A stretch of 64,000 nt of DNA from Escherichia coli (GTDB taxonomy: Bacteria > Pseudomonadota > Gammaproteobacteria > Enterobacterales > Enterobacteriaceae): the NCBI RefSeq assembly GCF_050920415.1, contig NZ_CP169310.1; one strand, given 5' to 3'. Each line of letters starts with the position of its first letter. The first letter of the stretch is position 1. The position numbers are program-made. Shown here one piece after another: positions 45,001 to 48,000 of the stretch.

Positions 45001-48000
45001 TGCGCTTTTTTTGCCGCCTGCTCTGCTTCCCGGGCCGCTTTCTCGGCCAGCTTCTGCTTTTTCACCTTCCATTTTGGTGGCGTGGTGACATTGATGATGG
45101 TTTTCCGGCTGCGGACAGGCGTCTCTCCTTCCGTTTTCCGCTTCAGTGTCAGTACCGGTCGCTTCTGCTCTGTCATGCTGTGTTCTGCCTCTGACGAATC
45201 ATCCTGTTACAGTCAAAGATACCACACCCGTCACAGTGCCAGAACGCCCAGCACAGCCAGATGACAGGCATAGAAAATCGGGAAAAAATCCCCGGGCCAG
45301 AAACGGGGTAGTGATTTCCCTGCACACGACACCAGACCAACGGTCAGCACCGTCATCACAAGGCCAGCTACAGCCGCCACATCACTGGTGGCAAGGTTAA
45401 GCGCAGGAATCACGGTCAGCAGGCAGGCAACCAGCGCCAGACGTTCCGTTCTGTCTTTCTCCCTGTACAGCCTGTGGCTGACCGCCAGCATTAGTAGCCC
45501 GGCAATGCCGTAACTGGTGCCGGACAAAGGCAGCCACGCTGCCAGCAGCAATATGACCCCCACCAAACGCCACCAACTGCGCGTTTCACACCACGTCAGC
45601 ATCTGTGCCGCAACCGCAAAGGCAAACAGGATATTCCCTTCATACCAGGGAAAGCCGGCAACGTAATACGCGAACTGGGCAATCACAGCCCATCCCCACA
45701 GCCGGTTAATGGCCGACTGCCGGATATGCGCATGACGGGACAGATTCAGCCCCCATACCAGGGCAAACAGCGGAAAGGCTCCACGCCCGGCCAGAAACAT
45801 CCACGTCTGGTCCAGATGCAGAATGCGGTTTGCATGGTCCAGTACCATCAGCACCAGTGCCACCGTTTTGATGATATCCCGCTGTCCGGGGGACCAGACA
45901 AGAAGGCGCTCCAGCCACTCCCGGGGTTTCATGGTCACAACACCGACCGTGTTATTCATATTCTCCATATCATCACGCCTTACGAAGCTTTAAAACCATA
46001 CATGTGCCAGCACAGTTCCCCCGATAATCAGTATCATCACTGCGGTAAGGCCGAGAAGAGACACATTCATCACACCAACCCGTCGGGAAACCGCATCCAT
46101 CCCGATTAAAAGGCGGACGTAAGCTTCATTTTCCTTAAGCTGTGTTCTGAGCTCTTCCACCGACGAAGATATCACGGGCAGCAACGGATGCGCGGGGTCG
46201 GTTTTTTTAAGTCTCAGCCGGGTTCTCAGTAAAGCTTTCAGGAAGGCGCACCCCGTCTTGTAAAACTCCATGTTGCAATATTCATCCTCGCTTATGCAGT
46301 TTTTCAGCGATGCCAGCTCTGCCGTAAAGCCATAACGCTCAGGAATATTGTCCACGGATAACGCGCTCAGTATGTCTGCTGTTTTTCCCCGGATGTCATC
46401 AGGGTCAGGGAAGGTTTCCATATCAGCAATCTCCTCAGGGGGTTAACACAAACGCCCGGGCCGACAGTATCAGTCTCCGCCCAGGGTTTTCTCTTTCTGC
46501 AGGTCACGGACCATATCCCGCTCCATCTGCTGCAGTCGCTCCTGCAACAGATTTTCCCGGGCAACCTCCCGGACAGCGTCCTGCACCCGTTGAGGCTCAC
46601 GCAGCACACTCTCCGGCAGTACGGCTTCCCGTTCAGAAGTGACAGCCCGGTCACGCTCCTGCCCGGCAATATCCCTGACAGCCTGCTCTGTTTTGTCATC
46701 CGGCTGGTCAGGTTTTTCCTCTGCCATTTTACGGACAATTTCATCTGCGCGACGTTCCGTTTCACGGCGGATAGCCTCTTCAGCCTGCCGCTGTGCCAGT
46801 ACCTCTGCCGTGACCGGTTCGCCATTTCCGGCTCCCGGCTGGACGCTGTTGTCCGGGATATCCCCCCACACGCGGCCACCGGTGATGGCACCCGGATTCC
46901 ACGGGCGACCTTCACCGGCAATTCTCACCACCACACCGCTGTCAGGATTATCACGGGCAATCCGGACACCATCCTGCATATTATCAGCCAGCAGACTCTC
47001 TCCGTTACGGCTGCCCTGCAGGGCCACAAACTGTGCATCTTCACTGCCCTTCACCCGGCCTTCACCACTGAATCCCCGCAGCCCGTTTCCGTCATCCGTG
47101 GTCAGCGGGTTCAGCCAGATACCAGCTGACCTGCCGTTACGGTCAAAAGCCGGCAGTGCCACATACGGCTGCGGATATTTGCGCCCCAGTGCAATAAACC
47201 GTGCAGGACTGTCTCCCCCGGCCAGCCCCGCCTGACGAAGAACGGCACGGCCTGCCGCCACATCCCGCAGCTCCCGCGCCGTACTGAACAGCCGCTCTGC
47301 ATTCATGACCTCCCGGTCCGGTTTCGGTTCAAACACATCGTGGGCTGTTCCTTTCTGTACGGCATTGTTAATGGCATCCGTCCAGCCCTGACGGTTATCG
47401 GTGTACACCTGTACATGCTGCTTCATACGCGACAGGGCCACGTAGGCTGATTCAAAGCCTGCCATCAGTTTCCGGTTACCTTCCGTGCCTTCAAGCGCGA
47501 TGGCAAAGGTTTCACTTGCCCCCTGCGCACCGTGGGCGGTGATGGCATAGGCCAGGTCAATATGTTGCTCTGCCCGCTCCTGACCGGGGCGAATCACCCG
47601 CGTCTGCTGTCCGTCCGACAGCGTGACACTGTCACCGGAAACCGCCATCACCGTCCAGACGCTGTTGGCCACATAACCGCGCTCCCGGTCACTCTTCGTG
47701 AAGCGCATCCGGTCACCGGTCCCCACCCGGATTTTGTCCGGGGTGTACAGTGTGACACCTTCAGCCACCGCCTCCCGGGGCGAAATCAGCCGTGAGTTAC
47801 CGTCCGTATCCTGCAGGGTTATCAGCCCGTCATCCCTGCTGATACCGGCAATCCGGTGATACACATTATCCACCAGGACAATGGCATCCGGGTTATTCTC
47901 CCAGGTGGAGAGACGACGCAGTTCCCCGTCGCGTATATTCGCTGTATTCAGGACAGGCACCATGACCTGCTCTTTTCCCAGCTCACCGGCCTTTTCCCGT

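Follow-up and report, generated by a model that had tools for sequence, protein, structure and literature searches.

A rare gene for a predicted tail-anchored protein between traI and traX of F-type conjugative plasmids

An additional ORF lies between traI and traX

We analyzed a 64,000-nucleotide stretch of an Escherichia coli plasmid (contig NZ_CP169310.1, assembly GCF_050920415.1; hereafter, the window), with attention to an open reading frame (ORF) that lies between the transfer genes traI and traX. Reading the window, we find that this ORF occupies 45990..46421 on the minus strand and runs from ATG to TAA (stop codon at 45990..45992) over 143 codons. Its product is identical to WP_000447372.1, a "hypothetical protein." A Shine-Dalgarno sequence, GAGGAG, was read from the sequence 9 nt upstream of the ATG (46431..46436, minus strand), and it is kept in other lineages as AAGGAG or GAGGAG. 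The upstream neighbor is a TraI-length ORF, the relaxase/helicase gene traI (46470..51740, minus strand), whose stop lies 48 nt before the start of the 143-codon ORF. The downstream neighbor is the pilin acetylase gene traX (45231..45968, minus strand), which starts 21 nt past the ORF stop; the TraX protein of the window matches PF05857 (E 3e-64) and NCBIfam PRK13706 (474 bits against a cutoff of 419). The same ORF gene, 100% identical, is present in the E. coli plasmid pCFSAN004180G (IncFIA/IncFIB, MPF_F).

The original prediction had stated that traI is followed directly by traX in F and had described the ORF as extra. F does have this order: in NC_002483, a gap of 19 bp separates the end of traI (97943) from the start of traX (97963). 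A survey of the traI-traX interval across plasmids had been proposed as a check. Performing this survey with a query made of the traI 3′ end, the ORF, and the traX 5′ end, we obtained 4872 matching plasmid records. The ORF was covered in 55 of these 4872 plasmids with traI/traX flanks (~1%). In the remaining records among the matches listed, the flanks were joined within ~291-298 bp as in F, or a single flank was matched. Thus, the ORF is indeed an addition and not a standard backbone gene. The plasmid pEntH10407 of enterotoxigenic E. coli (ETEC) also has traI directly followed by traX and is hence a non-carrier (PMC2762410). Being missing from F and from ~99% of the plasmids with the same flanks, the gene is shown, as far as sequence can tell, to be dispensable for F-type conjugation. 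The carriers are plasmids of food, cattle, and human E. coli isolates, including ETEC plasmids.

Aligning the window with F, we could delimit the segment that sets the ORF-bearing plasmids apart from the F-type ones (45900..46467, minus strand). Homology to F stops 3 nt past the traI stop and restarts within traX at CTGGTCTGGTC. The variant segment therefore takes in not only the ORF but also the first ~25 codons of traX, which are divergent from F traX, and no plasmid among the matches listed had the window-type traX 5′ end without the ORF. A transposon-like insertion was considered and rejected, as no recognisable repeats were seen at the F/window junctions and the alignment shows a segment replacement that includes the traX 5′ end. 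The 5′ end of traX (45231..45968, minus strand) reads MENMNNTVGVVTMKPREW… in the window and MTTDNTNTTRNDSLVARTDTW… in F. In an ETEC relative, TraX is annotated from an internal Met, and the true traX start is uncertain.

The G+C content of the ORF is 49.8%, as compared to 59.8% for traI and 57.6% for traX. A crude consensus scan of the minus strand found neither a sigma-70 promoter nor a terminator on either side of the ORF. By position, the ORF belongs with the genes that lie inside or directly after the transfer genes on the same strand, with no promoter or terminator of their own detected by such a scan. Given the negative promoter scan, the simplest reading is that the ORF would be co-transcribed with the tra genes.

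The ORF is conserved as a protein-coding gene

We compared the ORF in five lineages, namely, the window, the ETEC-2264 plasmid CP023351, plasmid A of the mouse E. coli M8, Salmonella Give pCFSAN012622, and the PNUSAE009425 plasmid CP113093. The reading frame was open in all five of these diverged lineages. The pairwise Nei-Gojobori ratio of nonsynonymous to synonymous substitutions (dN/dS) of the ORF was 0.28-0.47 at a dS of 0.13-0.36 across the ten lineage pairs. In the same plasmids, the ratio was 0.24-0.31 for traX, 0.10-0.20 for the traI 3′ end, and 0.07-0.16 for finO, which places the ORF close to traX and above traI and finO. The relatives at 26-49% identity keep both the length (136-148 aa) and the hydrophobic tail. 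Five alignment columns are invariant (M1, I10, L21, K62, and N98), and four more are nearly so (Y48, L61, R92, and L95). Since the frame is open in five lineages at a dN/dS of 0.28-0.47 and the distant relatives keep the length and the tail, the ORF is more than a chance frame; on this comparative evidence, it is shown to be a genuine protein-coding gene.

The gene also decays. A plasmid of E. coli O114:H49 carries a truncated copy (locus L006:4001-4243), annotated as 80 aa, of which the first 60 residues align at 78% identity. This copy lies ~380 bp upstream of an IS30 transposase gene.

The ORF encodes a predicted tail-anchored membrane protein

A single C-terminal transmembrane (TM) helix had been claimed for the 143-aa protein, and both Kyte-Doolittle analysis and AlphaFold2 modelling bear this out. 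AlphaFold2, run on a 13-sequence alignment, gave a model with a mean pLDDT of 86.4 and a pTM of 0.69. The predicted helices span residues 7-21, 23-30, 33-42, and 50-74, followed by one long helix at 80-142. The model thus has a four-helix bundle at the N-terminus, and the last helix of this bundle extends into the membrane segment. Codons 1 to ~112 (46086..46421, minus strand) encode the mildly acidic soluble domain (pI 5.4), the predicted four-helix bundle; the model, the pI, the R/K residues ahead of the TM helix, and the conserved columns support this domain, which is probably cytoplasmic. Codons ~118-141 (45999..46070, minus strand) encode the single C-terminal TM helix, or tail anchor, predicted by AlphaFold2 and Kyte-Doolittle. 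The top 19-residue Kyte-Doolittle window covers residues 120-138 with a mean of 2.39, leaving 5 residues beyond it. By the same measure, there is no second hydrophobic segment in the 143-aa protein, every other segment scoring ≤0.33. The TM helix makes up ~17% of the protein and the folded soluble bundle ~80%.

These properties recur across the family. All 17 members (the window protein and 16 relatives) have one C-terminal hydrophobic segment with a mean of at least 1.95 and 0-13 residues after it. The pI of the N-terminal domain is 4.8-5.7 across the 17 members, and 16 of them carry 1-4 R/K residues within 12 residues ahead of the TM helix. Conservation in the alignment is lowest over the tail sequence, while the presence and the position of the tail are constant. 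No signal peptide was found, and the N-terminus, METFPDPDDIRGK, is acidic. The predicted features are therefore those of the tail-anchored class, namely, a protein without a signal peptide and with a single TM helix within ~30 residues of its C-terminus. Because the signal peptide is absent and arginines lie ahead of the TM helix (the positive-inside rule), we infer a tail-anchored inner-membrane protein with its bundle facing the cytoplasm.

The chromosomal E. coli proteins ElaB, YqjD, and YgaM (DUF883) are tail-anchored inner-membrane proteins with a helical cytoplasmic domain and one C-terminal helix. The ORF protein has the same overall design. Unlike these three, it is plasmid-borne and tra-linked, and it has no Pfam match and hence no match to DUF883.

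The protein belongs to a very small, unnamed family

Searching Pfam-A, NCBIfam, PADLOC, and PHROGs, we found no match to the window protein at E ≤ 1. Two Klebsiella homologues gave PADLOC matches to SduA/DUF4263 with E values of 0.003-0.017 over ~50 residues, which we judged to be noise. A search of solved structures by sequence profile returned nothing below E 0.4, and the fold matches were generic helical bundles only. No catalytic-looking motif was seen in the bundle, where the invariant positions are mostly core hydrophobics with a few polar residues, K62 and N98 among them.

From 1.84 billion representative proteins, a HMMER profile recovered 22 family members. By tblastn, a relative was present in 85 of 72,556 plasmids, distributed over Escherichia (57), Klebsiella (19), Raoultella (7), and Salmonella (2). 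Among complete E. coli genomes, 63 of 5426 were positive, 62 of them through plasmids, and the representative genomes of 100,044 species gave one relative. In the 1.84-billion-protein search, the E. coli genomes, and the species representatives, no copy was seen in phages or away from transfer-region DNA. Every annotated record that we inspected carries the label "hypothetical protein," and a search of the full-text literature found no description of the protein or of a gene between traI and traX, and nothing relevant on tail-anchored conjugation proteins. Taken at the level of sequence, these searches show a very small, unnamed family of Enterobacterales conjugative plasmids.

We also compared the family alignment by hhalign with 20 Tra/Trb proteins of F, which include TraS, TraT, TraM, TraY, TraA, TraL, TraE, TraP, TraV, TraR, and TraQ; TrbA, TrbB, TrbD, TrbE, TrbF, TrbG, TrbI, and TrbJ; and ArtA. 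All the probabilities were ≤2.3%, the best being ArtA (2.3%) and the others ≤0.8%, and so the ORF protein shows no profile similarity to the small Tra/Trb proteins of F. The small membrane proteins TrbA, TrbE, TrbF, TrbJ, TraQ, TraP, and ArtA resemble it in their small size, in their membrane association, in not being needed for transfer, and in the place of their genes, which is within an F-type operon or at its end. They have no detectable homology to it (hhalign ≤2.3%). Moreover, they are mostly hydrophobic or N-terminally anchored, whereas the ORF protein is a soluble bundle with a C-terminal anchor and is found in ~1% of F-like plasmids. We conclude that the locus represents a rare, uncharacterised version of the F-type tra operon and not a new kind of system.

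The gene occupies exchangeable positions in transfer regions

Of the eleven locus types examined, ten are transfer regions whose transfer genes run in the same direction as the ORF, and one is a decayed remnant. The order traI-ORF-traX is found in E. coli and Salmonella. It is shared by a distant F-like lineage with 49% identity in the ORF and 40% in TraX; there, EKTLGGD, the C-terminal motif of TraI, closes the upstream fragment. As this order persists at 40-49% protein identity, it suggests an old arrangement that may have been lost later from most F-like lineages.

Other members sit elsewhere in the transfer region. In Klebsiella-type plasmids, the family member follows finO. One locus type has the arrangement mobF-DUF6012-ORF, and the annotation of that stretch shows no traX. 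In a plasmid close to those of Pantoea and Erwinia, the family member lies between traF and trbB. In non-F plasmids that also have a coupling protein, topB, and hns, the ORF follows a MobC-family gene and adjoins an ArdC and a PLD-nuclease gene; the latter two neighbors are seen in three non-F loci.

The same positions can hold other genes. In Enterobacter hormaechei CP118385 (locus L021:3221-3787), the traI-traX slot is filled by a DUF2726 protein of 188 aa that carries a membrane helix at its N-terminus. Where DUF2726 takes this slot in IncFII plasmids of Enterobacter, Citrobacter, and Salmonella, the flanks are 92% identical to those of the lineage that carries the 49%-identical relative. 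DUF2726 belongs to the PD-(D/E)XK superfamily and is of unknown function (PMC3424549). The window has a DUF2726 gene of its own elsewhere (43104..43694, minus strand). The traF-trbB slot (loci L011:3776-4195 and L022:2292-2814) holds the family member P0070, an antisense relE/parE in Pantoea agglomerans, or nothing in Erwinia. The traI-traX and traF-trbB gaps thus behave as exchangeable cargo slots. They may serve as a guide to where plasmid conflict or modulation genes hide.

The DUF2726 gene in traI-traX, relE/parE in traF-trbB, and vapBC between traD and traI are, like the ORF, optional occupants of the gaps between tra-operon genes. They share neither sequence nor fold class with the ORF protein. 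The toxin-antitoxin pairs run antisense to tra, whereas the ORF and the DUF2726 gene are co-directional with it; the ORF also lacks a partner gene, unlike these pairs.

Two more loci show how the region varies. In Escherichia sp. MOD1-EC7003 (locus L023:4005-4599), all that is left of traI is a 130-bp stretch (75% identical); an intact family member of 141 aa comes after it, and traX is gone. The locus is flanked by peptidase M20 and major facilitator superfamily transporter genes; here, the ORF outlived its transfer genes. The E. coli plasmid pS19_141-a (locus L019:2499-2867), a close relative without the ORF, has a stress-tolerance gene of the NirD/YgiW/YdeI family between traX and finO, which is another optional gene of the distal tra region.

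Possible roles of the protein

Our preferred reading, to which we give a probability of roughly 40%, is that the ORF encodes a dispensable, tail-anchored inner-membrane adaptor, which is made with the transfer machinery and whose bundle engages a protein on the cytoplasmic side of the membrane. The ORF would be read through from the tra operon, so that its protein is made together with the transfer machinery. Its bundle would face the cytoplasm, held at the inner membrane by the C-terminal helix, and would bind a protein partner there. Action by partner binding is proposed because the bundle has no catalytic-looking motif. The likeliest partner may be the coupling protein or the relaxosome (TraD/TraI class), since it is behind relaxase or relaxosome genes that the gene is so often found; alternatively, the partner may be a conserved host factor. 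Such an adaptor would tune transfer or establishment and would not build the channel. Should it act on the coupling protein or the relaxosome, F-type conjugation would have a new regulator of an optional kind.

Several observations weigh against this adaptor model. The TraI 3′ ends are ~95% identical with and without the ORF, and hence there is no matching TraI variant. The variable position of the gene and its replacement by DUF2726 or relE/parE in sister plasmids fit autonomous cargo equally well, and the intact ORF in the decayed MOD1-EC7003 locus hints at persistence without the transfer machinery. Finally, the promoter scan was crude, and the cytoplasmic orientation is a prediction.

The main rival, which we hold possible but less probable, is that the gene is conflict cargo, a "moron" carried in the tra slots. 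As such, it would inhibit the transfer of co-resident plasmids, block male-specific phages that use the F pilus and TraD, or act by abortive infection. This explanation would account for the presence/absence polymorphism among near-identical backbones, for the occupation of the same slots by the PD-(D/E)XK-like DUF2726 gene or relE/parE in sister plasmids, and for the ArdC and PLD-nuclease neighbors in the three non-F loci. The low G+C content of the ORF (49.8%, against 58-60% for traI/traX) and the intact copy that survives in a decayed tra remnant point in the same direction. However, the window protein has no PADLOC match and gives no sign of an enzymatic or pore-forming effector. This family was not seen in phages or off transfer-region DNA, whereas a wider range is usual for generic defence genes.

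Another reading would be a new class of tail-anchored, cytoplasm-facing effectors that share the exchangeable cargo slots of tra operons with toxin-antitoxin pairs and DUF2726 nucleases, dock on the coupling protein, and either block exploitation of the machinery or gate transfer. Their targets could be, for example, the entry of TraD-dependent male-specific RNA phages or the mobilisation of rival plasmids. We consider this reading doubtful.

It is improbable that the protein is a helper of TraX, that is, a membrane-anchored cofactor or regulator of the adjoining pilin acetylase. The adjacency of the ORF and traX is kept where TraX is only 40% identical, and the ORF is always linked to the distinct traX 5′ end among the matches listed. 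Nevertheless, in the regions examined, the members after finO, after mobF-DUF6012, between traF and trbB, and in the three non-F loci have no adjacent traX, and F lacks the ORF. F TraX works without it.

A role in exclusion had been suggested in the original prediction. As an entry or surface exclusion factor made in a plasmid-bearing cell, the protein would keep out DNA that arrives from a related donor. A small inner-membrane protein from the tra operon with fairly fast family divergence (dN/dS up to 0.47) would suit such a role, and TraS and TraT are likewise envelope proteins of the distal tra region. Of these two, the former is a polytopic protein and the latter an outer-membrane lipoprotein. 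The ORF protein resembles neither: the hhalign probability was 0.4% for F TraS and 0.1% for F TraT, there is a single TM helix, and there is no signal peptide with a lipobox. The 0-13 residues beyond the TM helix leave almost no periplasmic surface. traS lies between traG and traT, and traS and traT together lie between traG and traD, in contrast to the ORF between traI and traX. The plasmid of the window, moreover, already has traT (56304..57035, minus strand) and, in the traS position, a polytopic ORF of 167 aa with several hydrophobic segments (57067..57570, minus strand; 38% G+C), annotated as hypothetical. The genes in the traS position are highly variable between plasmids, and this ORF is presumably a divergent entry-exclusion allele. 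With no promoter of its own detected for the traI-traX ORF and ~99% of F-like plasmids lacking it, we regard exclusion as quite improbable, and this part of the original prediction is not upheld.

The gene could also be a hitch-hiking ORF that is currently functionless, as its rarity, the truncated copies beside insertion sequence elements, and a dN/dS above that of traI or finO might suggest. We hold this very unlikely: in every one of the ten lineage pairs, dN/dS stays well under 1, at values like those of traX, and the frame, length, motifs, and tail are kept down to ~27% identity together with the ribosome-binding site. A holin-like or other membrane toxin, the second role that had been suggested, fits the small size and the one hydrophobic helix but is the least likely of all. 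A well-folded soluble bundle, conserved and under purifying selection, takes up ~80% of the protein, and conservation is lowest in the TM sequence. No holin PHROG or Pfam match was found, the neighbors are traI and traX rather than an endolysin gene, and across the eleven locus types no antitoxin, immunity, or endolysin gene is consistently adjacent. Moreover, the operon is expressed in healthy donors.

Other features of the window

Two further ORFs lie between traT and traD (54656..56232, minus strand), where F has only a gap of ~250 bp. One encodes 203 aa with a lipoprotein-like N-terminus (…LIQGC) at 33% G+C (55621..56232, minus strand), and the other encodes 217 aa with one hydrophobic helix (54656..55309, minus strand). 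The annotated record has only the ORF at 55621..56232, in a shorter form of 159 aa.

A vapB/vapC pair (51819..52049 and 52049..52447) lies on the plus strand between traD and traI (51737..52456). It is antisense to a 239-aa minus-strand ORF, and the same vapBC pair is annotated in F. The length of this 239-aa ORF equals that of the classical trbH of F.

Near the IncFII replicon, two strongly AT-rich hypothetical ORFs flank repA (40380..41249). These are an ORF of 374 aa (38339..39463, minus strand; 29.5% G+C) and an ORF of 154 aa (42485..42949, minus strand; 35% G+C). Against the window mean of 46% G+C, both look like foreign insertions.

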